Of a DNA stretch of 32,000 bases, positions 1-25,189 are shown in pieces. Every line of letters starts with the position of its first letter. Within the stretch, counting starts at the first letter, position 1. Origin of the DNA: Halogeometricum borinquense DSM 11551 (GTDB lineage Archaea; Halobacteriota; Halobacteria; Halobacteriales; Haloferacaceae); the NCBI RefSeq assembly GCF_000172995.2, contig NC_014729.1:390001-422000 (forward strand). Direction: 5' to 3'. The notes beneath the pieces were generated by a model. That model ran no database searches. It worked only from the letters and a program-made list of their open reading frames with translations, and was not told the DNA's origin. A program made the translations under genes and the position numbers.

Positions 1-200
1 GATTCATTAACACCTGTTGAGACTGCGCTCTCTGCGAATACCACTTCGGTGTCTGCAGAGTGCGTCGTAAAAACGGGATGCTTCGGGGTCGTACGGAAGA
101 CAAAGCCTTCCGTGATGACGAGACATTCCGCGTCTCGAACCACTTGAACCTGAGGTGATTCACCGTACTCGACATCGTATTGGTGGCCTTGCTCAGGCAT
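1..200 (-). CDS. hypothetical protein; the C-terminal end runs off the left window edge. Visible N-terminus: MPEQGHQYDVEYGESPQVQVVRDAECLVITEGFVFRTTPKH...
   Basis: Hand translation of the minus strand from ATG (plus-strand cat at 198-200) stays open to position 1. It is absent from the ORF track because no stop lies in the window. It is on the same strand as the ankyrin gene and 122 nt downstream of it. No domain recognised. Confidence 0.3.
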   Translation of the reverse strand, partial: MPEQGHQYDVEYGESPQVQVVRDAECLVITEGFVFRTTPKHPVFTTHSADTEVVFAESAVSTGVNE

Positions 201-322
201 TTTCTCACCCCGTATTCGGTTTCCACATCGGTGTCTGTGGGTGTTCAACAGGATATGCGGTGATCGCCTTGTAGATACTGTCCGATGACTGGTATGAAGT
301 GTCTGTTTCTCAGTGGGAGCAT

Positions 323-796
323 TCAGTCAGTGAATATCTCAATGAGGGCTTGATCATCCCGGCGGCGGGCGATAGATCGGGGGGATTTTCCGGCGTCGTT
401 CTGATTCGCTGGATCTGCCCCGTGAGCAACAAGTGATTGAATTATGTCGTCTTTGGTCTCTTCGTTCACTACTGCACTCCATAACGGTTGATTACCGTAG
501 TCATCCGTTACTGTAACATCTGCTCCTTCACTAAGGAGAATCCTTACCATGTCTTCGTAACCCATCTCCAGCGCGTAATGGAGCGGTGTCTTCCCTTCTT
601 TACCTCTGTGGTTGATGTCGATATCTCGATCTATGAGTTCTTTCGCAAACTCATCTTGTCCATATGCTGCTGCGGCATGGAGCAGATTATCGCCGGACTC
701 GTCTAATGTATTTATATCGACGGTATTGATTAAATCCCGAAATTTCTCTTCATCGCCTTCTTCAATGCTGTAGAATAGGAGTGTCGTCTCATCCAT
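323..796 (-). CDS. ankyrin-repeat protein (157 aa); candidate immunity protein for the adjacent toxin
   Basis: ATG start. Clear ANK consensus repeats: GDNLLHAAAAYGQDEFAKELIDRDIDIN, GKTPLHYALEMGYEDMVRILLSEGADVT and GNQPLWSAV...IIQSLVAHGADPA. The start lies 2 nt after the stop of ORF 799..1662. Confidence 0.9.
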   Translation of the reverse strand: MDETTLLFYSIEEGDEEKFRDLINTVDINTLDESGDNLLHAAAAYGQDEFAKELIDRDIDINHRGKEGKTPLHYALEMGYEDMVRILLSEGADVTVTDDYGNQPLWSAVVNEETKDDIIQSLVAHGADPANQNDAGKSPRSIARRRDDQALIEIFTD

Positions 797-798
797 CG

Positions 799-1662
799 TT
801 ATTCATCTCCCTCGTACTTTCTACTGCGGTTGGCTTTTGGCTTTTCCGGCCGATAGTTATCCGGGTCCCGGTACCTGTTGAGAAATTCTTCTTTCGAAAT
901 TAGTCCGCTTATGTACTTTTGATGCAATTTACGGTATTCCCTCCGGGGCTTGTGTCCCATATCCCACTGTCCCTCACGTGGTTCGCCTCGATCCCATTCG
1001 AGCCGTTCACCGGTATTTGGATCATAAACGTTCCCGTCTTCGTCTTTTGCCTGTTCCCACACTGCTTCGACTTGTCCATCGGCGTAATCTGGCCGGTTGT
1101 TGGCATATGGTTTGTCCTTCTCCTCACCACTTCTCGGCTGTTTGTACCTCTCTTCTAATTCGCTGAATTTTCCCTTTTCATCACGCTTCTGCTTTTCCCA
1201 CTGTTTGATCCTTTGAACGTGTATTCCTGCATTCGCCATGCGATGCACGCCGATTTTCCCACCTTGCATCACGCGCTGGGCGGTTTCTTCGGCTTCCCGC
1301 TCTAAGCGTGGGTCAGGATCAATCTCTAACTCGCCCGCTTGGGGGAGCATCGACACCGCGCCACCCGTTTGCTGGCGCACGTGTGCTAACTCGTGGGCGA
1401 GAATATGCTGGCCTTCAGCACTCGATGGATCGTACTCGCCGTGGTTGAACGCGATGTGATTGCCGACGGTAAACGCGCGGGCGTTGATGTCTTCACAGGC
1501 TTTCGCGGCCGATGGACCCGTGTGAATACGCACGTCGCCGAGGGTGTCACCCATCCGATCTTCCATCGCGCGCTGAATTGAGGTATTGAGACGCTGGTCA
1601 GACAGCACTGAAATATTACGAGCCGTCTCGTTAGAAAAGGCTCGTCTGTTGAGTAAACGCAC
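799..1662 (-). CDS. DUF4157 (zincin-like HExxH) domain protein with a GH-E-like HNH/EndoVII nuclease C-terminus; N-terminally truncated paralogue of 7257..8510
   Basis: DUF4157 signature: IQRAMEDRMGDTLGDVRIHTGPSAAKACEDINARAFTVGNHIAFNHGEY...QHILAHELAHVRQQ. C-terminal motif: DPNTGERLEW..WDMGHKPRREYRKLHQKYISGLISKEEFLNRYRDPDNYRPEKPKANRSRKYE. The first codon at 1660-1662 is GTG, not ATG. The first ATG (1564-1566) would cut into the domain, so the start is uncertain. Confidence 0.8.
   Translation of the reverse strand: MRLLNRRAFSNETARNISVLSDQRLNTSIQRAMEDRMGDTLGDVRIHTGPSAAKACEDINARAFTVGNHIAFNHGEYDPSSAEGQHILAHELAHVRQQTGGAVSMLPQAGELEIDPDPRLEREAEETAQRVMQGGKIGVHRMANAGIHVQRIKQWEKQKRDEKGKFSELEERYKQPRSGEEKDKPYANNRPDYADGQVEAVWEQAKDEDGNVYDPNTGERLEWDRGEPREGQWDMGHKPRREYRKLHQKYISGLISKEEFLNRYRDPDNYRPEKPKANRSRKYEGDE
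1237..1576. repeat. 340-nt block homologous to 7701..8040 (copy 1)
   Basis: Hand alignment at a constant offset of 6464 nt gives 304/340 identical positions with no gaps. Identity falls to roughly half within about 30 nt beyond either end. Confidence 0.9.
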
Positions 1663-2593
1663 CGCTTTCGGGGTTGTGGAACTCCGGATAGAAGTCGATA
1701 TAGCTGTAGCAGTGGGCCGCCATGAACTGTCCTAATCCCAGCACACGGAACTCCTCGGGCGGAACGACGCCCATCTCGATAAACACATCTCGAATCTGGC
1801 ACCGAAGGTAGTGATCCATGAACGACTGGAAGTATTCCAGGCTCTCTAGCTCAATCGGGAGCAGTTCGATAACCGTATCCGGCTCTCTGGAGGTCGGTTC
1901 GAGATGGTCATCGGCGGCCACTAAGTCCGTCCCTTCGGGGTGTTTGACGTACAATTGGGACGTGTTGTCGATATAGACCGCGTCTGAGAGGTCGATCTGT
2001 TCCTCTATCGCCCGCGTGGCGAACTCACCCGTAAACTCACCCCACTGTTTGATCTCCTCCGTGGAAAGATCGGCTATCGCCACGTCAGCCGCTGACTCCG
2101 CGGTGATATCGAGGTCATGCTTGGCGGCGAGTTCGTCACCGAGGTCGGTTTCCAGCGGGTCAATCCCGAGATAGACGTTCTGCGCGTAAATCGGCGGGGT
2201 CGTTGCTTGCGGTGGGACGTCATAGACCGGCTCGGCGCTCCCGTCGGTTTCGGAGGAGAACTGCTGGTAGAGGTCACCGAAGTGCGTCTCGAACGTCTCC
2301 AAATCCATCTGGGCGATTGCCTGCCGGACCGCGTCGATTCTGACGGGATTCTCCGGAGCCGAGACCGTATCGTATCCCCGCTTCAGGTATACGTAGTACT
2401 TGGCGTACTTGCGGGCCTGATTGACGTATTCATTACCTTCGTCCGTCCGCTTTGAGGAGTCATCCGGGTACCCGTCCTGTTCGTGGTAGGTAATCTCGCC
2501 GCTCTCGTTCGTCTCGATCAAGTGCTCAACATCATTGTTATCGATGACACTGAGCCCAATCCGCTCAGATTCTCCCGTGATGATTGCGTCCAT
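1631..2593 (-). CDS. hypothetical acidic protein (320 aa), no recognised domain
   Basis: ATG start, long ORF, acidic halophile-like composition, and core-like GC (a spot count of one line gave 62%). Its 3' end overlaps the GTG-started toxin ORF by 32 nt. Confidence 0.6.
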   Translation of the reverse strand: MDAIITGESERIGLSVIDNNDVEHLIETNESGEITYHEQDGYPDDSSKRTDEGNEYVNQARKYAKYYVYLKRGYDTVSAPENPVRIDAVRQAIAQMDLETFETHFGDLYQQFSSETDGSAEPVYDVPPQATTPPIYAQNVYLGIDPLETDLGDELAAKHDLDITAESAADVAIADLSTEEIKQWGEFTGEFATRAIEEQIDLSDAVYIDNTSQLYVKHPEGTDLVAADDHLEPTSREPDTVIELLPIELESLEYFQSFMDHYLRCQIRDVFIEMGVVPPEEFRVLGLGQFMAAHCYSYIDFYPEFHNPESGAFTQQTSLF

Positions 2594-2727
2594 TTATCTC
2601 ACCTCCGACTCTTTGCGTCACCAGTTGAGTCTCCCGACCCAGTTCCAACGGTTGCATCTTTGGCGGCCTGCCTGATATCGTCGAGCTACGCGTCTGGTGA
2701 GTCCATTTTAGCGAGTTGGTTCGGGAG

Positions 2728-3138
2728 ATGATCCGACAGCAGACAGAATTCGACTGTGAGAAAAAACAAGTCCTTGGACGGTCAGGGAACCACTACGAGG
2801 TTGATGCTGTCCCGCTAATTAAGGGCCGACAGAATGAGCGATACCTTCATCTCATCAATATCAAAGACACCATCGTCGCCAATACCAACAACAGTACGTG
2901 GTACAACCGTGTTGATCGCGCCCATGCGCGGATGGACGAAGTGGTTGGGGACTTCCTCCCGAAGTCGCTCGTGTTAGGTGAATTCAGTGATGTCGGTGAC
3001 CGGTCATTCAGGGCTGAGTTTGCGTCAATTGGGGCCCGAATCATCGATATTGAGTCGTTCGGGACCTTGATCGAAGAAATCGAATTATTTGCAGACAATC
3101 CAGCCCTGTTTACTCAGCGTCCACCTATTGACAGATAG
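2728..3138 (+). CDS. hypothetical protein (136 aa); weak resemblance to a PD-(D/E)xK / restriction-endonuclease-like core
   Basis: The track ORF begins at TTG 2716 and the first ATG is at 2728. The motif GRSGNHYEVDAV ... LHLINIKD is reminiscent of nuclease-fold cores but not diagnostic. The 3' end overlaps the convergent ORF 3085..3639 by 54 nt. Confidence 0.4.
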   Translation: MIRQQTEFDCEKKQVLGRSGNHYEVDAVPLIKGRQNERYLHLINIKDTIVANTNNSTWYNRVDRAHARMDEVVGDFLPKSLVLGEFSDVGDRSFRAEFASIGARIIDIESFGTLIEEIELFADNPALFTQRPPIDR

Positions 3139-3639
3139 TCGCCCGTGAACATCCTGCACGCAGCGCGAAGTGGTTCTGAAGTCCCCGTCTGGGGCGGTCG
3201 CGAACGTGAGTGCCATATCGCGATCACACTGCATGATGTTAACCTCTAACAGCTCGTTTTGATACGTTTCGACCACGTAGACGGTCGTCTGACTTTCGTT
3301 CCAGTCGTCGACGAACTGCGTACTGTTGCCATCCGAGACTGTCGACACACGGTCCGAACATACCGGGTCGTGGAGAGTGACGTTAGTGTAGTTCGCCTCG
3401 GTCTGTAGTTCCTCTATCTCAACGAGCGTTTGATGTCCATCTCTTGTGGTAACGTCGAAGCGAAGTTTCTCAGGACTCTCTTGAGCACTTTGGAAGGCCG
3501 TGACCAAGTAGCTTGATTCTCGTTCGTTCTCGATAAGGATCTGTGTCTCATCGTCGGAGAGCAGTGTCGTGAAACCGACAACCAGTACGAGACTGGTCAA
3601 GAGACTGGTGAGAATCACTCGGCGTGAGGGCAGTTGCAT
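3085..3639 (-). CDS. secreted or membrane-anchored hypothetical protein with a Tat-like signal
   Basis: Internal ATG at 3637-3639 gives MQLPSRRVILTSLLTSLVLVVGFTTLL. This contains a twin-arginine-like SRRxxL motif followed by a hydrophobic helix. The remainder is acidic and Thr/Asn-rich. Confidence 0.55.
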   Translation of the reverse strand: MQLPSRRVILTSLLTSLVLVVGFTTLLSDDETQILIENERESSYLVTAFQSAQESPEKLRFDVTTRDGHQTLVEIEELQTEANYTNVTLHDPVCSDRVSTVSDGNSTQFVDDWNESQTTVYVVETYQNELLEVNIMQCDRDMALTFATAPDGDFRTTSRCVQDVHGRLSVNRWTLSKQGWIVCK

Positions 3640-3895
3640 CGGGTTAATTGCGTTCCCTCTCCCGGTATGCGTTTTGGGATGCAACGACGAAGCGACATAG
3701 TGAACTGAGACTCACTAGCGCACAGTTGCTGTCCTTGCACATAGGGAGAGAAACGTATATGAAATCCTGCCTAATCACGTCCAAGTCTGCTGAACGAGGG
3801 ACTCACTTACCGGCAGACTGCGTCGTCGGCCAGTGCTGAGGAGTCGTTAGCGGACGTCACTTATGTGTCAGTCTGAGTGACGGTAGGCTGGATGG

Positions 3896-4414
3896 TTAAC
3901 TACTATCATCTTCCAATACTGAGCGTGCCCGCTGGACGTAACTATTTGTGTCCCAACTTCGGGCGGTACTGATGTCGTCCAAGAGAGTACATGCCTCAGC
4001 GGGCATCAATTGTCCTGTTCGGACGAATACCGAAAGCAGTGTCGGCGTCGTCACAAGTCGTGTATCGACTAGTGACGCGTGAATCAGTCCCAGCGAGTTG
4101 AATTCATCACAGAGGAAGAGGGCGGCGTCGATATCGTTTGCGAGTGTCACGGCGGCGTTCTCGCCATCATCGAGTGGGAACTCAACATCCAAATCTACTG
4201 ACCGAACCAGCAGCTCGGCAGTCTGGTCAAGGACGACGGTTGCGGCGTGTCCATGCGCATCATCATACGAGGCAATCTCTCGGAGTTCTTCAATAACCAC
4301 CTTTGGGACGGACACATCATAGCCGGTGAGACAGCGTGAGAGGGGATTCGGGTCGGAGTCGGAAACGATGCCCAGACTCACGAGTGCGGATGTGTCTGCG
4401 ACTAGCGCTGCCAT
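3896..4414 (-). CDS. PIN-domain (VapC-like) protein, putative toxin
   Basis: N-terminal MAALVADTSALVSL (first PIN Asp), followed by VIEELRE, DDGENAAVTLA and LCDEFN acidic motifs in the usual PIN order. The ATG directly abuts the stop of the upstream RHH gene (TAG-ATG). Confidence 0.75.
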   Translation of the reverse strand: MAALVADTSALVSLGIVSDSDPNPLSRCLTGYDVSVPKVVIEELREIASYDDAHGHAATVVLDQTAELLVRSVDLDVEFPLDDGENAAVTLANDIDAALFLCDEFNSLGLIHASLVDTRLVTTPTLLSVFVRTGQLMPAEACTLLDDISTARSWDTNSYVQRARSVLEDDSS

Positions 4415-4717
4415 CTATACGTCGGCGACCTCGTCGACGAAACTGTCGTCCAACTGCTGTTTCAACACCCGGAGGTTTGCCGCCTCTTCGGCGCCGACGA
4501 GCGCTTTGAGTTGCTCGAACGTGATCTCGTCGTCGTAATAGGCGGCGGCAATCTCCTGGACGAGTGCGTCGTCGTGAGCGGCGTCTTGGAGGTATTCCCG
4601 AAGCGCGGTCACGAGGACGTCTGTTCGGTCTTCCCCGAGGACGGCGGCCAGTGCGTCGGCCCGGTCGATAAGCCGATTGGGGGCCCGAAACTGCACTCGC
4701 TTCTTATCTGTACTCAT
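4415..4717 (-). CDS. ribbon-helix-helix (CopG/VapB-like) antitoxin
   Basis: Starting at ATG 4715-4717 gives MSTDKKRVQFRAPNRLIDRADALAAVLGEDRTDVLVTALREYL, a typical RHH beta-strand plus two helices. The longer track ORF starts at a GTG (4777) and adds a non-acidic leader. Confidence 0.75.
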   Translation of the reverse strand: MSTDKKRVQFRAPNRLIDRADALAAVLGEDRTDVLVTALREYLQDAAHDDALVQEIAAAYYDDEITFEQLKALVGAEEAANLRVLKQQLDDSFVDEVADV

Positions 4718-4719
4718 GA

Positions 4720-4773
4720 TGTGTACAATGTGAGCCAGCACACTTAGTCGTTTTCGTGTGTACAATGTGAGCC
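4720..4773. promoter_or_regulatory. two exact 17-nt direct repeats (TGTGTACAATGTGAGCC), candidate operator of the RHH-PIN operon
   Basis: The copies are at 4720-4736 and 4757-4773, a 37-nt period. Each contains the palindrome TGTACA. The first copy begins 3 nt upstream of the antitoxin ATG. Confidence 0.5.
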
Positions 4774-4960
4774 TCACTAGGTCTCTATCGATTACTCGCT
4801 GCTCAACGCAGTCGATAGCGAGTCGTGTTCGTCAGCAAGGACTTCAACAAGACCAAAGAAACGGAGAGTCGGCGGTCCAATCACCGTGGAGCACTGGATG
4901 AATCACGTCCGGGTCCGCACCAGCCGAGTCGGTTTTGCACACGTCAATTCGTCGCCCGTG

Positions 4961-5000
4961 TGCAGTTTCACGGAAGCGACGATCTCTACGTGAAACTGCA
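4961..5000. repeat. perfect 12-bp inverted repeat with a 16-nt spacer (strong hairpin)
   Basis: TGCAGTTTCACG (4961-4972) pairs with CGTGAAACTGCA (4989-5000). It lies about 45 nt past the stop of the minus-strand ORF 5044..5433. Confidence 0.6.
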
Positions 5001-5043
5001 AGCATGTCAATTGCCGACAGCTACCTTCGGTGTAACCGCTTCC

Positions 5044-5433
5044 TTAGACTTCACGTGCCCACTCAAGTCCCTCGTCGAGAGTATCGAAGTCAGCAATTTC
5101 TGCCTGTGGAACCTTCATCCGAGATTTGACTGCCATTCCGGTGATTCCCTCTGCAACGAATCCAACCTTCTCAACACCAGCGTATTTGCAGTTGCCAGAC
5201 CACTCTTCAGCCATATACTCTTGTGTCTCCGCTGAGAGATTTGTCTTATCGCCAAAGATTGCTAAGGTAGCTGTAATATCTTCTTTACTCGCCCGTTCAC
5301 GATAATGCTGGCTGACTGCTTCTAGCGTTTCATCTGCGAATCCTGCCCAGCCGCGGATATCCCAGACACCGACATTATCGCGTTTTTGGAATTCCCATTC
5401 GTACTCGTCAGAATTCGGTAGTTTCGATCCCAT
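5044..5433 (-). CDS. hypothetical protein (129 aa); possibly a SpoIIAA/STAS-like fold
   Basis: Internal ATG at 5431-5433 gives MGSKLPNSDEYEWEF.... The N-terminal extension in the track ORF is Cys-rich, non-acidic and lies in AT-rich DNA. The C-terminal pattern GVEKVGFVAEG..MAVKSRMKV...IADFDTLDEGLEWA resembles DUF3478/STAS-like proteins only loosely. Confidence 0.5.
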   Translation of the reverse strand: MGSKLPNSDEYEWEFQKRDNVGVWDIRGWAGFADETLEAVSQHYRERASKEDITATLAIFGDKTNLSAETQEYMAEEWSGNCKYAGVEKVGFVAEGITGMAVKSRMKVPQAEIADFDTLDEGLEWAREV

Positions 5434-5692
5434 GATACATAGCGAGTTAATAACTAGATCCGAATATATCTGCCCGTACCTGCAGAGACAATCAGATATC
5501 GTAACCGTTCTATAATCCTTTCTGGTTATAGATTCAACATTTGTTGGGTGATTATTTACAGCGGTAGCGAGGCGAAAGCCCATCCCCTTAGGGGCAGAAG
5601 GAAGCCGACAACTGGGGACCTATCCACACTCGTAGCCACGCTGGGGTTGGATGTTTGCATAACAACACCCTCGTTGAGGGAAACCAAGCTAC

Positions 5693-6148
5693 TCAGTCAA
5701 CCTGTTCGTTGGCCCAGTTGTTTATGTAGTGTTGTTTCTTCTCCTGTCTGTGCCACAGCATTAGGATGTCCTCGTCAGCGTTCTCGTCTTCCCGGCTTGC
5801 GGCCCATTTGTTCGGGTCGAAGTCTGGTCTGTCCTGCCACCACGCATCATAGGTAGTGGTAAATGTATTACTGTTGTCATAGATTCGGAAACTGGTCTTT
5901 CCGTTCTCATAGTCATGGTTGTAGGTTACTTCTGTGCCCGGACTGTACAGGTCCCAAGTTGTCCCGTCGATTTGGACGAGTATCGTATTTTTTTCTGAAT
6001 CTGGATAGATAGCAACCCAGACACCGTCTACTTCGCTGCAAACACCCGAGATGTCTTGGTCTTCTATATCTGTGAATTCATCACCCACTCCCTCAGAGAG
6101 GTCGAACTGAGTGTATTCCACGAACCGGTCGAAGTTCCTCAGTTTCAT
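5693..6148 (-). CDS. hypothetical protein (151 aa), intact member of a tandem paralogue pair; candidate orphan immunity protein
   Basis: The track start at 6160 is TTG. The ATG at 6146-6148 gives MKLRNFDRFVEYTQFD, which aligns with MYLKQFNRRSEYTCFD of the neighbour. Shared motifs are WxAxYPD, TWDxY and TTYDAWW. Confidence 0.6.
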   Translation of the reverse strand: MKLRNFDRFVEYTQFDLSEGVGDEFTDIEDQDISGVCSEVDGVWVAIYPDSEKNTILVQIDGTTWDLYSPGTEVTYNHDYENGKTSFRIYDNSNTFTTTYDAWWQDRPDFDPNKWAASREDENADEDILMLWHRQEKKQHYINNWANEQVD

Positions 6149-6180
6149 TCTCACCGCCAACGATCACCTAGATGAATGCA

Positions 6181-6648
6181 CTACCGCTGTAGGGCTTCGG
6201 ACCACGGTTCGATCCAATTGTTCTTGTCCTCCTCATTAATCGAGAGGTATTTTATGTACCCGAAGAAGTCTTTCATCTCGTTGTCTTGTTCTTCGAAGGT
6301 GAGCCATTCACTTGGCTTTAGATGAGGGACTTCTTTCCACCAGGCATCATACGTCGTCTCGAAACTGTTGTCATTATCTTCGATTTTGAAGTAGGTCTTG
6401 TCCTGGTCGTACTTGTGCTCGTAGGTTATCTTACTGTCCTCGCCGTAGATATCCCAAGTAACTCAGTCAATGTGAACGATTAAACTCTCACCATCCGCAT
6501 CTGGGTATACAGCAATCCATCGGTTGTCTATGTTTTTACAGAACCCCGATGTCGCTTCGTCTTCGATTTCTTGAAACTCGCTAACGCTATCGTCCGAAGG
6601 ATCGAAACAGGTGTATTCCGACCGTCGGTTGAACTGTTTCAAGTACAT
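6181..6648 (-). pseudogene. paralogue of 5693..6148 interrupted by one in-frame TGA
   Basis: Hand translation continues in the same frame past TGA (plus-strand tca at 6463-6465): ...LIVHID*VTWDIYGEDSKITYEHKYDQDKTYFKIEDNDNSFETTYDAWWKEVPH...ALQR, with the final stop at 6181-6183. The stop sits where the paralogue has Gly (QIDGTTWD). Confidence 0.7.
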
Positions 6649-6737
6649 TTTATGAACTAGTCGGGTCCTGTCTGCTGTCCAGCGTCCGAACGACCATTAT
6701 AGAATATCGATCGACGCCCTCGTCGTGATCAAACTGC

Positions 6738-7250
6738 CTACTCGTCAACGTAGGGGTCCAACAGCTCCACCACGTCCGTTATCCCATGCTTTTTCACCCA
6801 CTCCAGCACAGATTCCCCGGACTCATCTGTCGCCGTCGGATCAGCACCGTGTTCAAGGAGCAGTTTCACGAACTTCCGATCACTTCGGCCCCTCGTAACC
6901 GCCACCGAGAGCGGACATCTCCCCTTGTTATCGAAGATATTCGGGTCAGCACCCGCCTCAAGCAATACCTCGGCTGTGTCATAGCTTTCAACTTCTATCG
7001 CATGAAGCAACGCTGTGTGACCTCCATTATTTTGAGCATCCAGATCGATCCCCCGATCAATCAGCTCCCTCGCTATTTCTGGACGATCTGCACCCGCGGC
7101 CTTATGCAAAAGGGTACTTCCATTGTCTGACCGATGAGTCAGGTCAGCGTCATCAATGAGCTCATCGAACTCCTCTGTATTGCCCTGGATAATCGCCGAT
7201 TCAATGTCGGTACTAATGTACAGATCGTCGGGTCCTTTGTCTTCACTCAT
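6738..7250 (-). CDS. ankyrin-repeat protein (170 aa); candidate immunity protein
   Basis: ANK repeats: GSTLLHKAAGADRPEIARELIDRGIDLD, GGHTALLHAIEVESYDTAEVLLEAGADPN, GRCPLSVAVTRGRSDRKFVKLLLEHGADPT and GESVLEW. The ATG lies 6 nt after the toxin stop. Confidence 0.9.
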   Translation of the reverse strand: MSEDKGPDDLYISTDIESAIIQGNTEEFDELIDDADLTHRSDNGSTLLHKAAGADRPEIARELIDRGIDLDAQNNGGHTALLHAIEVESYDTAEVLLEAGADPNIFDNKGRCPLSVAVTRGRSDRKFVKLLLEHGADPTATDESGESVLEWVKKHGITDVVELLDPYVDE

Positions 7251-7256
7251 AGTTTT

Positions 7257-8510
7257 TCACTCCAGTGGTCCCCATTTTTCTGCCCAGTATTCGCCTTCTT
7301 GCTCATGCTCCCCGGAACTGCTCGCGCGATGTGATTCTGGCTGATAGTGGTCCGGATTTCTGTACTCTGCTAAGAACTCTTCACGGGTAATAATTCCTCT
7401 CAGATAGTACTCGACCAGATACCAGTACTCTCGCCTGGGTTTATGCCCCATACACCATTCATCACGATCCAGCGGTACCTCATCGACGGCACAAAACACA
7501 ACACCATTAGGACCTTTCGCCCTGTTCCACACCTCTTCCCGCTGCCCTGGTTCATACCTTGGACGTTGGTCGTGTCCATAGGGCTTCTCCTCACGCTTTG
7601 TTCGCTTCTTGGCTATCTCTTCCTTCAGTGGGCCAAATTCCCCATTCGGGCGTCGTTTTTGATCCTCGTGATGACGCTGGACATGAACCTCGGAGTGCTC
7701 CATGCGATACACGCCGATTTTCCCACCTTGCATCACGCGCTGGGCGGTTTCTTCGGCTTCCCGTTCCAAGCGCGGGTCCGGGTCAATCTCTAACTCGCCC
7801 TCTTGGGGGAGCATCGACACGGTACCACCTGTTTGCTGTCTCACGTGTGCTAACTCGTGGGCGAGAATATGCTGGCCTTCCGCCGAACTTGGGTGGTACT
7901 CGCCGTGATTGAACGCAACATGATTCCCAACGGTAAACGCGCGGGCGTTGATGTCCTCACAGGCTTTCGCAGCCGATGGACCCGTGTGAATCCGGACGTC
8001 ACCGAGGTTGTCACCCATCCGGTCTTCCATCACGCGCTGAATCGAAGCGTTCAGCGACTGTCCCGGCGAGGAAATCACGTCCCGAACCGAATCCGGGACC
8101 TGTGTGTCGCCAGCTTTCGACGCCTCGTGGTGCGCGCCGCGACTACGCTGGACAGATTTAGCGTTCCGGCGTTCGATGTCCTTTGGGACTTCTGCGGGGC
8201 GTTCTTTCTGACGCTGGCGGAACGCGCGCATGTCGCGTGGCTTGCCTATCGTATCGACGGTCATTCCCTCGTCGGCCCATTCTCGGACTTGACCTGCGCC
8301 GTGTTTCTTGGCCAGTCGCTGAATCTTCGTATCCAGCCCGTCCATGTAGATCTCTACCCCGAAGCGAGATTCACACTCTTGGGGCGTTAGCGAACCACCG
8401 CCACCACGACTCCGATTCCGATTCGAGCCTCCCGTCAACTCTTGAATAGACGGAACGGACGAGGACTCTTTGCTCGGAGTCGTCCGCTCGTTCGCAGACC
8501 GAAATCTCAT
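7257..8510 (-). CDS. full-length DUF4157 (HExxH) protein with a GH-E-like HNH/EndoVII nuclease C-terminus (417 aa); candidate polymorphic toxin
   Basis: ATG start. It has a unique N-terminal region of about 165 aa with no signal peptide. The DUF4157 core is IQRVMEDRMGDNLGDVRIHTG...HILAHELAHVRQQ. The C-terminal motif is WCMGHKPRREYWYLVEYYLRGIITREEFLAEYRNPDHYQPE. Confidence 0.85.
   Translation of the reverse strand: MRFRSANERTTPSKESSSVPSIQELTGGSNRNRSRGGGGSLTPQECESRFGVEIYMDGLDTKIQRLAKKHGAGQVREWADEGMTVDTIGKPRDMRAFRQRQKERPAEVPKDIERRNAKSVQRSRGAHHEASKAGDTQVPDSVRDVISSPGQSLNASIQRVMEDRMGDNLGDVRIHTGPSAAKACEDINARAFTVGNHVAFNHGEYHPSSAEGQHILAHELAHVRQQTGGTVSMLPQEGELEIDPDPRLEREAEETAQRVMQGGKIGVYRMEHSEVHVQRHHEDQKRRPNGEFGPLKEEIAKKRTKREEKPYGHDQRPRYEPGQREEVWNRAKGPNGVVFCAVDEVPLDRDEWCMGHKPRREYWYLVEYYLRGIITREEFLAEYRNPDHYQPESHRASSSGEHEQEGEYWAEKWGPLE
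7701..8040. repeat. 340-nt block homologous to 1237..1576 (copy 2)
   Basis: Same hand alignment as copy 1: 304/340 identical, gap-free, with sharp loss of identity at both borders. Confidence 0.9.
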
Positions 8511-8525
8511 TCTTACTGCAAACTT

Positions 8526-8546
8526 GATAGCTATCCTATATAATTA
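8526..8546 (-). promoter_or_regulatory. candidate promoter of the toxin gene: 10-bp palindrome GATAGCTATC plus a TATA-like element
   Basis: GATAGCTATC is at 8526-8535. The AT-rich run TATATAATTA at 8537-8546 lies 27-36 nt upstream of the ATG at 8510, which fits a leaderless haloarchaeal transcript. Confidence 0.3.
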
Positions 8547-8623
8547 CTCGCGCCTAGACCGCGGCGGTGTGTAGAGACGGCCGTGCCAGCGGTTTCTTGC
8601 GCTTCGAGTTCCAACGATCACGT

Positions 8624-8926
8624 ATGCCCAGTACCGCCCCGTCGTTCGACCCCGAGGAGTTGATGACCTCGTTGGAAGACGAATTCGGCGGACGGGAGGC
8701 CGAACGGCGCGTTGTCGCCCGACAGGCGCGTGATCTCGCGGACTCCGGGAAGGTCGAACGCGACCGCGGGCAACCACTCACCGTCGAAGAAGTGGTACGG
8801 CAGATGCGCGACGCGCCGGACGATTCGACCATCCCTGAACGCTGGAACTGGTGGCTCGGCTCATTGGAAGCCGCGTACGGCGGCTACCGCGAATTCCAAG
8901 TGACGCGCATCCCCAACGGTGACTGA
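8624..8926 (+). CDS. hypothetical protein (100 aa)
   Basis: The ATG at 8624 gives an acidic product: MPSTAPSFDPEELMTSLEDEFGG.... The upstream part of the track ORF is basic and non-halophilic. Confidence 0.6.
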   Translation: MPSTAPSFDPEELMTSLEDEFGGREAERRVVARQARDLADSGKVERDRGQPLTVEEVVRQMRDAPDDSTIPERWNWWLGSLEAAYGGYREFQVTRIPNGD

Positions 8927-23731: not shown

Positions 23732-25036
23732 ATGAAACGCCAACAGACAGTTATCCTCGTCGCCGTCGCCACTGTCGTCGCTGTCGGCGGTGGTGCAATC
23801 CTCTTTACCGACCAGGGCGGTGAAGCGGACGCCTCCACCGCGGCCAACGACGCGTCGGCGGCTGTCGGGGAATCGACGCCGACGGCGCAATCGAGCAATT
23901 CGAACAATCAGCAGACAGAGACATCTGGCGAGTCGGACAGTTCCGAATCGGGTGATGTAACGTCCGGTGCCGACGATAGCGATACCACGTCGTCGAGTTC
24001 CAACAGTACCGACGCCCAGTCCGTCGAACGCGCGAACGAACCACCGACGGCCGAAGCAGGGGCGAACAGAACTGTTCCCGAGTGGCTTCGCGTCCATTTC
24101 GACGCAACATCCTCTAGCGATCCCGACGGCAACGATGCCAACCTCACCTACGAGTGGACACAAATCGATGGTCCGGCGGTGGACATCGTCGATGCAGACA
24201 CTGCAAAGCCCAACATCCTCACGCCGGAGATTGTCTATCGGACCGACCTTACGTTCCAACTCACTGTCACCGACGAAGCGGGAGAGACGGCGACGGACAC
24301 AGTGACGATCACTGTCCGCCCGCCGGACCGAGACGACTCTGACGACGAGCAGACGGAATCTGACAACTCGACCGACGAGTCCGATAACTCCACCGACGAA
24401 TCGGATGACTCCGATTCAGAGCAACCGTCGGACCCGAACGACGACGCCGGTGACTCAGACGACGATTCTGATGATTCGAGCGACGACTCGGGCGATTCAG
24501 ATGACAGCGACTCCGGTGATTCGGATGACGACGCCGGTGATACGGAGACCACTCGCGACGACATCGCACAGGCGGTCTTCGACTCGAACTTCGACGGCCT
24601 AAACGCCGCGGATGCGGCCGTTGTCGAGGAATTCTACATGCGCCAACCTGACGGCGACTGGGACCTCTCGACGGTCCAGACCCGTGACGAACTCGCACAG
24701 GAGGAGTACGGGTCGGACTACGACGAACTCGGCTTCGATGCTCGCGTCGATGTACAGACGGCGTTCGACGCCCAGTTCGATGACACGGGCGGCGCACTCT
24801 CGAAAGACGAAATCTCGCAGGCCAAATGGGGCTACGACTTCGACGAGTTGAGTAACGAGTCCGCAGGTCAGATTACGGAACTGTACGACCGGCAACCGTG
24901 GGCTGACAGAGAGACCGAACACGTTCGCACCCGCGAGCAGTGGTCACAGCGCCTCTACGACTCCACGCTCTCAGATCTGACGCGCGACGCTCGACTCGAT
25001 GTCGAACGCCGGTACAACAACCAGTTCGACGACTAA
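23732..25036 (+). CDS. N-terminally anchored extracellular acidic protein with a PKD-like domain, a D/S-rich linker and four C-terminal repeats
   Basis: The N-terminal TM is VILVAVATVVAVGGGAILF. The PKD-like segment is ANRTVPEW..FDATSSSDPDGNDANLTYEWTQIDGPAV...LTFQLTVTDEAGETATDTVTITV. Residues about 198-272 are almost only D/S/E/G. The C-terminus carries repeats of about 40 aa. Confidence 0.75.
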   Translation: MKRQQTVILVAVATVVAVGGGAILFTDQGGEADASTAANDASAAVGESTPTAQSSNSNNQQTETSGESDSSESGDVTSGADDSDTTSSSSNSTDAQSVERANEPPTAEAGANRTVPEWLRVHFDATSSSDPDGNDANLTYEWTQIDGPAVDIVDADTAKPNILTPEIVYRTDLTFQLTVTDEAGETATDTVTITVRPPDRDDSDDEQTESDNSTDESDNSTDESDDSDSEQPSDPNDDAGDSDDDSDDSSDDSGDSDDSDSGDSDDDAGDTETTRDDIAQAVFDSNFDGLNAADAAVVEEFYMRQPDGDWDLSTVQTRDELAQEEYGSDYDELGFDARVDVQTAFDAQFDDTGGALSKDEISQAKWGYDFDELSNESAGQITELYDRQPWADRETEHVRTREQWSQRLYDSTLSDLTRDARLDVERRYNNQFDD

Positions 25037-25189
25037 TACGGGCGGTCGGACAAGGATTGTCTGACCGGCTGACGATGCTCCAGCCATCTTTTTCTCTGCT
25101 TGACTTTTGTTTCATCGGCTTTGACCCGGCATAGACTGTGGATTTTCAAGAGAAAATTGAATAAAACTCCAACGACAAGATCACCTGTT

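Follow-up and report, generated by a model that had tools for sequence, protein, structure and literature searches.

Two Putative Toxin Genes and Their Ankyrin Partners

The window analysed here, a stretch of 32,000 nucleotides (nt) from the haloarchaeon Halogeometricum borinquense DSM 11551 (contig NC_014729.1, positions 390,001–422,000), carries two genes for putative toxins, T1 and T2, which have in common a DUF4157 core, a GH-E tip, a downstream ankyrin-repeat gene and a block of 340 nt with 89% identity. Taken together, the data describe this block as a real and well-supported recombination or gene-conversion tract in a family of polymorphic toxins. The two cassettes consist of the following features:

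323–796, minus strand: Ank1, ankyrin-repeat gene 3' of T1, presumed cognate immunity gene
799–1662, minus strand: T1 (Hbor_04090), DUF4157 plus GH-E, 287 amino acids (aa) from the first GTG, 5'-truncated
1210–1221, minus strand: HVQR junction in T1 (aa 148–151)
1237–1576, minus strand: block copy in T1 (codons 30–142), retained piece of the family constant region
6738–7250, minus strand: Ank2, ankyrin-repeat gene 3' of T2, presumed cognate immunity gene
7257–8510, minus strand: T2, 417 aa, full-length family member, DUF4157 plus GH-E
7674–7685, minus strand: HVQR junction in T2 (aa 276–279), in a segment predicted to be disordered
7701–8040, minus strand: block copy in T2 (codons 158–270)
8094–8510, minus strand: T2 N-terminal region (aa 1–139), absent from T1

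Both toxin proteins match the Pfam family eCIS_core/DUF4157 (PF13699; E = 4e-31 for T1 and about 1e-30 for both genes; 107.5 and 104 bits, cut-off 22) at T1 residues 25–101 and T2 residues 153–229, and the GH-E HNH/EndoVII family (PF14410; T1 E = 1e-28, T2 E = 8e-26; 99.9 and 90.9 bits, cut-off 25) over profile positions 1–68 of 68, and their tips are predicted GH-E nucleases. Pfam returned nothing else for T1 and T2, in particular no CdiA or Rhs core. The HExxH motif is present as HELAH in both proteins, its residues H218, E219, and H222 being invariant in 50 sequences. It should be noted that T1 is annotated as a protein of 269 aa with a GTG start at 1608, and is 99.6% identical to database protein P0061; T2 is 100% identical to the H. 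borinquense database protein P0001. The two proteins align over their whole shared length with 63% identity overall. The ankyrin genes begin 3–7 nt beyond each toxin gene and are both recognized by Pfam (Ank_2, E = 2e-23 for Ank1). The initial annotation had seen no obvious nucleotide-level similarity in the tips and in the ankyrin genes; both tips are, however, of the GH-E type and share 43% aa identity after HVQR, while for the two ankyrin partners the figure is 33%.

In the AlphaFold model of T2 (mean predicted local distance difference test score 80) residues 1–40 are predicted to be disordered, 41–128 to form a helical domain, 140–235 to correspond to DUF4157, 246–260 to be a helix, 273–281 including HVQR to be a low-confidence junction, and 320–417 to be a confidently folded GH-E domain. 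No significant match was found for the full-length T2 model with Foldseek or by a profile search against the sequences in the PDB. A TATA-like element (TTATAT, 8538–8543) lies 33 nt upstream of the ATG of T2, as would fit an archaeal transcript with a short leader or none. A TATA-like element was not found upstream of T1, which is weak evidence.

The Shared Block

Positions 1237–1576 and 7701–8040 align at a constant offset of 6464 nt with 304 of 340 positions identical and without indels, the values that had already been counted by hand. The drop in identity on the tip side (16/36 at 1201–1236) was likewise reproduced, and so was that on the other side, where the recount at 1577–1597 gives 12/21 rather than the 13/21 reported before. 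When the window was searched against itself with BLASTN, as had been proposed, 1236–1581 matched 7700–8045 (89.4%, E = 5e-130), and this pair is the sole DNA-level repeat within the 32 kb. The copies are direct repeats, codon-aligned with each other, with 36 differing sites and perfect-identity runs of 26, 39, and 54 nt, the last of which (1246–1299) lies at the tip-proximal end. The description of the block as DUF4157 core plus linker also holds: it covers most of the Pfam match and the LEIDPDPRLEREAEETAQRVMQGGKIGV segment, the linker part being the conserved helix after DUF4157.

The GC content is 0.61 in the T1 block and 0.59 in the T2 block, versus 0.48 in the T1 linker and tip and 0.47 in the Ank1 gene; the contrast that had been noticed in single 60-nt lines is thus found on whole segments. 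At third codon positions (GC3) the values are 0.67 (T1) and 0.66 (T2) for the blocks, 0.64 for the T2 N-terminal region, 0.49–0.51 for the tips with T1 at 0.49, 0.46–0.56 for the ankyrin genes with Ank1 at 0.46, and near 0.71 for two flanking chromosomal genes. This supports the suggestion that the tips were acquired separately, in that tips and immunity genes have another history than the constant region.

An assembly artefact as the source of the block pair was discarded, given the 36 differing sites and the recurrence of T1 and T2 in independent assemblies. In a draft genome of the same strain (GCA_000337855.1) the T1 protein (P0050) contains, within the block (equivalent to about 1360–1450), a tandem duplication of 30 aa, AFNHGEYDPSSAEGQHILAHELAHVRQQTG, which is either a real variant from unequal recombination or a short-read assembly artefact of a repeated region. 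PLSDB contained no H. borinquense plasmid copy of the block.

Synonymous Sites in and around the Block

The block encodes the most conserved segment of the family (frequency of the top residue 0.8–0.96 in 120 aligned homologues), and between T1 and T2 its nonsynonymous divergence is low (dN = 0.05). These are the two facts that speak for purifying selection on the DUF4157 protein alone, with T1 and T2 as paralogues of old age whose neutral sites have diverged to the same extent throughout. Such an explanation we regard as highly improbable, because the synonymous sites are conserved, too. In a codon alignment of T1 and T2 evaluated by the method of Nei and Gojobori the proportion of synonymous differences (pS) is 0.30 in the block (dS = 0.38), whereas outside it, in linker and GH-E tip as well as in the homologous 5' flank, it is near 0.9 and thus saturated, with a dN near 0.5. 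Where both proteins have the same amino acid (Met and Trp excluded), the codons are identical in 80 of 101 cases in the block and in 20 of 70 outside (Fisher p = 3.6e-11); from codon usage 38–51 identical codons would be expected in the block. A two-breakpoint maximum chi-square scan that considered synonymous states only placed the segment at T1 codons 29–141 (1578–1240), and 0 of 500 permutations scored as high. The comparison of synonymous with nonsynonymous sites had been named in the initial annotation as the check most able to overturn its reading; the outcome favours recombination.

Between Halogeometricum and Haloferax genes the same segment shows about 90% aa identity at a pS of 0.58–0.72. 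Protein constraint therefore leaves the DNA free to change, and the block DNA is not constrained as such. From the synonymous discontinuity between T1 and T2 it follows that the block has a more recent ancestry than its flanks. The identity of the block is thus due to recent shared ancestry via recombination or gene conversion among DUF4157 paralogues and not to protein selection alone: purifying selection on the block protein is real, yet does not explain the block.

The inter-genus comparison also bears on the proposal that the block contains a functional nucleic-acid element (an RNA structure, an internal promoter, or an antisense gene). Antisense open reading frames (ORFs) at 1238–1459 and 7702–7908 are indeed similar in both copies, but this likeness is automatic at 89% DNA identity. 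A scan of the window against Rfam gave no match, and the synonymous sites of the block vary freely between genera, which leaves such an element with next to no probability.

Recombination among Paralogues

Among the H. borinquense paralogues the nearest relatives of the T1 block are P0007 (92% nt identity, pS 0.29) and T2 (89%); compared with P0005 from Haloferax the identity is 82% and pS 0.58. T2, which had been taken as the partner of the T1 block, is probably not the closest one, since at the protein level the T1 block differs from Hbor_28990 of the same genome at 1 of 113 residues (112 identical) and from T2 at 7 of 113. The tip of T1 and its ankyrin partner have other affinities, which run parallel to each other: the tip is nearest to that of P0005 (71% aa identity versus the 43% to T2) and Ank1 is nearest to the ankyrin partner of P0005 (57% versus the 33% to Ank2). 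Tips and ankyrin partners have histories that are much older than that of the block and separate from it.

These data have to be weighed against a recent duplication of the whole cassette (dS near 0.4), after which tip and ankyrin gene would have diverged rapidly under diversifying selection without any recombination. That both tips are GH-E domains and both partners ankyrin-repeat proteins would fit, and toxin–immunity interfaces evolve quickly. Positive selection does not, however, saturate synonymous sites, and pS in the tip is about 0.9; codon identity among the conserved residues of the tip (20/45) is near chance; the T1 tip and Ank1 are much closer to the Haloferax cassette than to that of T2; GC3 falls from 0.67 to 0.49 at the boundary; and the pairwise homoplasy index (PHI) test and a strain-specific patch, both described below, show recombination directly. 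We consider a whole-cassette duplication without recombination very unlikely.

The constant region is a mosaic. For example, T2 and P0010 are 88% identical at the nt level in the N-terminal part and 81% in the block, and T1 is 96–98% identical to both P0007 and P0010 over codons 31–50 and less so further on. The PHI test on the constant region was significant (p < 0.001) with ten genes, with third codon positions only, and with the five H. borinquense genes alone.

Recombination is also seen when the T2 locus is compared with its orthologue in H. borinquense strain CP048739 (L011). The T2 tip and the Ank2 protein are 100% identical in the two strains, and most of the locus shows 0–1 mismatch per 60 nt, from which one stretch stands out:

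7709–7908, minus strand: substitution patch in the T2 block, 28 substitutions versus CP048739, taken to be a gene-conversion tract

Most of the variant states in the patches that distinguish CP048739 from DSM 11551 are found in other paralogues; T1, for example, has the DSM 11551 allele at 9 of 9 sites in 7716–7737 and the CP048739 allele at 8 of 9 sites in 7821–7908. Because the substitutions between the strains are clustered and templated, they are attributed to gene conversion. Conversion has probably also produced a second patch, which lies in the N-terminal region at the 5' end of T2 (8340–8519, minus strand; 15 substitutions versus CP048739). The chromosomal surroundings of the T2-like genes are different in two other strains (L010, L011).

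The HVQR Junction of the Family

A homologue search yielded 1347 homologues; conservation was read from the alignment of 120, and tips were clustered from 106. Dozens of haloarchaeal proteins match T2 over residues 1–279 and diverge completely beyond about residue 279, most of them being without GH-E. Over T2 residues 1–279 the identity is 87–94% within H. borinquense and 75–80% in Haloferax. Q278 (98%) and R279 (96%) are among the conserved residues, directly after which conservation collapses; the pattern [HY][VI]QR is present in 107 of the 120 homologues, and the 106 tips fall into 23 homology clusters. As judged from these sequences, the order in the family is N-terminal domain, DUF4157, linker with HVQR at its end, variable tip, and then an immunity gene; throughout the family HVQR marks where the constant region gives way to the variable tip.

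The interpretation as polymorphic toxins, first put forward for T1 and T2, is therefore borne out at the family level by the HVQR end, the 23 tip clusters, and immunity-like genes that co-vary with the tips. What has to be revised is the extent of the conserved handle, which is not 340 nt: the constant region of the family comprises about 840 nt (about 280 residues), and T1 retains about 340 nt of it because it is a 5'-truncated orphan cassette.

A second near-invariant VQR motif (KSVQRSR, T2 aa 118–124, 8139–8159 on the minus strand) is located upstream of DUF4157, with S119 and R122 at least 90% conserved. The presence of VQR motifs on both sides of DUF4157 raises the hypothetical idea that they may be processing sites.

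T1 as a Truncated, Probably Orphan Cassette

Alignment of T1 to the family begins near T2 residue 140, and the N-terminal approximately 139 residues that the other aligned members have are missing from it. Its closest full-length relative, P0005 from Haloferax sp. S1W (419 aa), has the N-terminal region. Immediately before T1 on the minus strand lies a gene whose end meets the T1 start:

1631–2593, minus strand: immunity-like gene for an acidic protein of 320 aa, orphan

The 320-aa gene has no match in Pfam or NCBIfam. Its protein is 40% and 32% identical to the products of 5257–6222 and 7025–7951 of a Natrinema thermotolerans locus (L004), where these homologues sit directly 3' of DUF4157 toxins; DNA related to the gene also follows toxins in Haloferax (L002) and in a metagenome-assembled genome (L005). 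The protein looks like a member of an uncharacterised immunity family, to go by its sequence relatives, and is here without a toxin of its own; the remnant of a toxin that would be expected before the gene was not found within the window.

A scan of genome contigs with T2 returned 5 loci, H. borinquense itself not being among them. The Natrinema locus is organised as an array:

Natrinema L004: full-length toxin 3959–5254; 321-aa partner; truncated toxin 6231–7028; 308-aa partner; shorter truncated toxin 8073–8687

The truncated toxins of this array are 87–100% identical to the main gene at the nt level up to HVQR and about 40% beyond. The one at 6231–7028 starts inside DUF4157 and has lost HExxH (HVLAHVRQQ in place of HVLAHELAHVRQQ, four residues being lost), which indicates that the constant part of an orphan can decay while the tip is kept. 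Fragments of the block are found among immunity-type genes also in Haloferax (L009, 121 nt) and in the H. borinquense strain L011 (95 nt), and the fragments retained in L004, L009, and L011 all keep the tip-proximal end of the block. Since the order immunity-like gene, T1, ankyrin gene matches that of the Natrinema array, T1 is best read as an orphan module.

The Haloferax sp. S1W locus (L009, 7266–10484) has, behind a full-length GH-E toxin, an ankyrin gene, a SUKH/SMI1_KNR4 gene, the 121-nt block fragment, two more ankyrin genes, a DUF7957 gene, and a colicin-immunity-like gene, which is typical of an immunity/orphan island.

Proposed Tip Exchange and the Function of T1

We consider it quite probable that the block is what remains of the constant region in a family of polymorphic toxins, T2 being a full-length member and T1 an orphan cassette, with a history of recombination between such genes. 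The block could then serve as the homology tract for the exchange of tip-plus-immunity cassettes. A crossover between the T1 and T2 copies would delete 6,464 bp and yield an in-frame gene of 415 aa composed of the T2 N-terminus and the T1 tip, with Ank1 downstream, whereby the spare toxin would gain an N-terminus competent for delivery. Tip switching at the T1/T2 locus is in this way inferred from the arrangement of the repeats. Delivery would be by the membrane-anchored contractile injection system (CIS) of H. borinquense, which resembles a type VI secretion system (T6SS), if T1 and T2 behave like their paralogues. Loading in AlgoCIS requires the N-terminal domain that lies upstream of DUF4157 (bioRxiv 10.64898/2026.05.27.728243). 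A region upstream of DUF4157 is present in T2 (aa 1–139) and not in T1; by likeness to the AlgoCIS N-terminal domain it is a candidate loading or trafficking module, and on this analogy T1 may need to recombine onto a full-length gene before it can be delivered.

Several observations weigh against this picture. No strain and no database match showed a T2–T1 chimera or the 6.46-kb deletion. No single donor of the 28-substitution patch was found among the sampled paralogues, so that either the donors are unsampled or the events were multiple, and the likely closest partner of the T1 block, Hbor_28990, was compared at the protein level only. T1 and T2 are absent from the secretome hits and from the toxicity set of the H. 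borinquense CIS study (PMC11566945); their toxicity, the immunity function of the ankyrin proteins, and the dependence on the CIS are presumed. Finally, the ORF of T1 with its HExxH is intact, and the T1 tip is under purifying selection when compared with Haloferax P0005 (pN 0.13, pS 0.88). T1 may thus function as a short-form effector instead of being a silent spare.

In its full form this alternative accepts the conversion history and takes T1 as a functional short-form effector co-expressed with the upstream gene, the block similarity being a by-product of concerted evolution without a role as a handle. Besides the intact ORF, HExxH, and GH-E motifs and the selection on the tip, it has in its favour that short forms occur in other strains (P0067), that the role of DUF4157 in AlgoCIS is unsettled (bioRxiv 10.64898/2026.05.27.728243), and that H. 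borinquense effectors have been suggested to attach to the spike instead of being loaded into the tube (PMC11566945), in which case the rule of the N-terminal domain may not apply. It is opposed by the approximately 139 N-terminal residues that T1 is without and the other aligned members have, by the TATA-like element that T2 has at −33 and that was not found upstream of T1, and by the position of T1 after an immunity-like gene, which is that of the degenerate Natrinema orphans, one of them without HExxH. We consider it unlikely, yet with enough probability to be taken seriously. It is the serious alternative to T1 as an orphan cassette, and it concerns the function of T1 and not the history of the block.

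More speculative is a combined proposal, namely that a silent, delivery-incompetent T1 is activated via the block with loss of the 6.46 kb and, in addition, that HVQR is the site at which the DUF4157 metallopeptidase frees the tip. That both parts hold together appears doubtful. If true, such activation would parallel, in an archaeon, the activation of Rhs orphans, and the boundary of DNA recombination and the boundary of protein processing would coincide at HVQR.

Genomic Surroundings

The toxin region (1–8540) is a low-GC island with 52.7% GC versus 60.9% for the rest of the window. Its edge is at about 8.6 kb, where ordinary chromosomal genes begin (halocyanin-like copper protein, beta-CASP nuclease, AI-2E transporter). 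No transfer RNA gene was found when the window was scanned. For the island genes that separate the T1 and T2 cassettes neither Pfam nor NCBIfam gave a match; 3896–4777, which had been guessed to be a ribbon-helix-helix/PIN pair, received no profile support and is not claimed as such. Between the T2 cassette and T1 there are also a gene for 155 aa (5693–6160, minus strand) and a copy about 43% identical to it by tblastx (6268–6675, minus strand), which looks broken in that only a 61-aa ORF (6463–6648) is left. The two have no family match and may be further orphan immunity genes. Unrelated to the block, a 434-aa protein with a PKD domain and internal repeats is encoded at 23732–25036 on the plus strand (many tblastx self-matches at about 24270–25060).

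Comparison with Known Toxin Systems

DUF4157 Zn-protease-like domains are a signature of archaeal polymorphic toxin islands (PMC6393860), and by its domain composition the T1/T2 locus is to be placed in this already recognised class (Zhang et al., 2012; Makarova et al., 2019). To it the analysis adds the HVQR junction, an orphan cassette, and two GH-E/ankyrin pairs, and it gives direct evidence that paralogues have undergone gene conversion with each other; some of this may have been described already (Makarova et al., 2019).

A functional precedent comes from the same organism. As reported in PMC11566945, H. borinquense has a membrane-anchored T6SS-like CIS, with which archaeal contact-dependent antagonism via such a machine was first demonstrated in 2024. 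Five DUF4157 proteins were secreted in a CIS-dependent manner, the DUF4157 effectors named being Hbor_01880, 02990, 07690, 38720, 38740, and 38900, and four DUF4157-family or neighbouring proteins were toxic in Haloferax volcanii unless the downstream gene was co-expressed. T1 and T2 have in common with these effectors the organism, the DUF4157 family, and a downstream partner gene. In the passages of that report that were consulted GH-E and ankyrin are unmentioned, the words polymorphic and orphan are rare, and diversification of the effector repertoire does not come up.

Toxins associated with extracellular contractile injection systems (eCIS) carry DUF4157 with HExxH in their N-terminal part, joined to a C-terminal effector that varies (Geller et al., 2021; PMC8213781). 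They and Cgo1 and Cgo2, the cargo proteins of AlgoCIS, share with T2 the N-terminal domain, DUF4157, and the variable C-terminal effector. There are differences, however. eCIS and AlgoCIS are bacterial extracellular particles with the cargo in the tube lumen, whereas the H. borinquense system is membrane-anchored, and the N-terminus of T2 is not disordered throughout, being modelled as helical at 41–128 behind a disordered segment 1–40.

In genetic organisation the locus is like the bacterial systems of contact-dependent inhibition (CDI), Rhs, and Maf. Their orphan modules are without the N-terminal trafficking region and retain sequence that is homologous to the last part of the constant region, and by recombination through this retained stretch a spare tip can be mounted on a full-length gene (PMC4436062). 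CdiA-CT/CdiI, Rhs-CT/RhsI, and MafB-CT/MafI resemble the T1/T2 window and the Natrinema array in having a constant N-terminus, a variable tip, a downstream immunity gene, and truncated cassettes. The core protein is here, however, DUF4157/eCIS_core, and the junction is HVQR rather than VENN, PxxxxDPxGL, or the Maf motif, for which reasons the locus lies outside the CDI, Rhs, and Maf families. Further differences are the archaeal host, a delivery that presumably relies on a contractile injection system, and the position of T1, which is not immediately downstream of T2, being separated from it by 6.4 kb with unrelated genes.

For further work the locus offers two candidate toxin–immunity pairs, a candidate junction or processing motif in HVQR, and a prediction of toxin switching that can be tested by polymerase chain reaction. 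It indicates that haloarchaeal DUF4157 effectors follow the same evolutionary logic as the bacterial CDI, Rhs, and Maf toxins: recombination homogenises a constant region, which ends in a sharp junction motif, tip-plus-immunity cassettes can be exchanged, and orphan cassettes occur in truncated form. As this principle is well established in bacteria, the locus extends it and overturns nothing.

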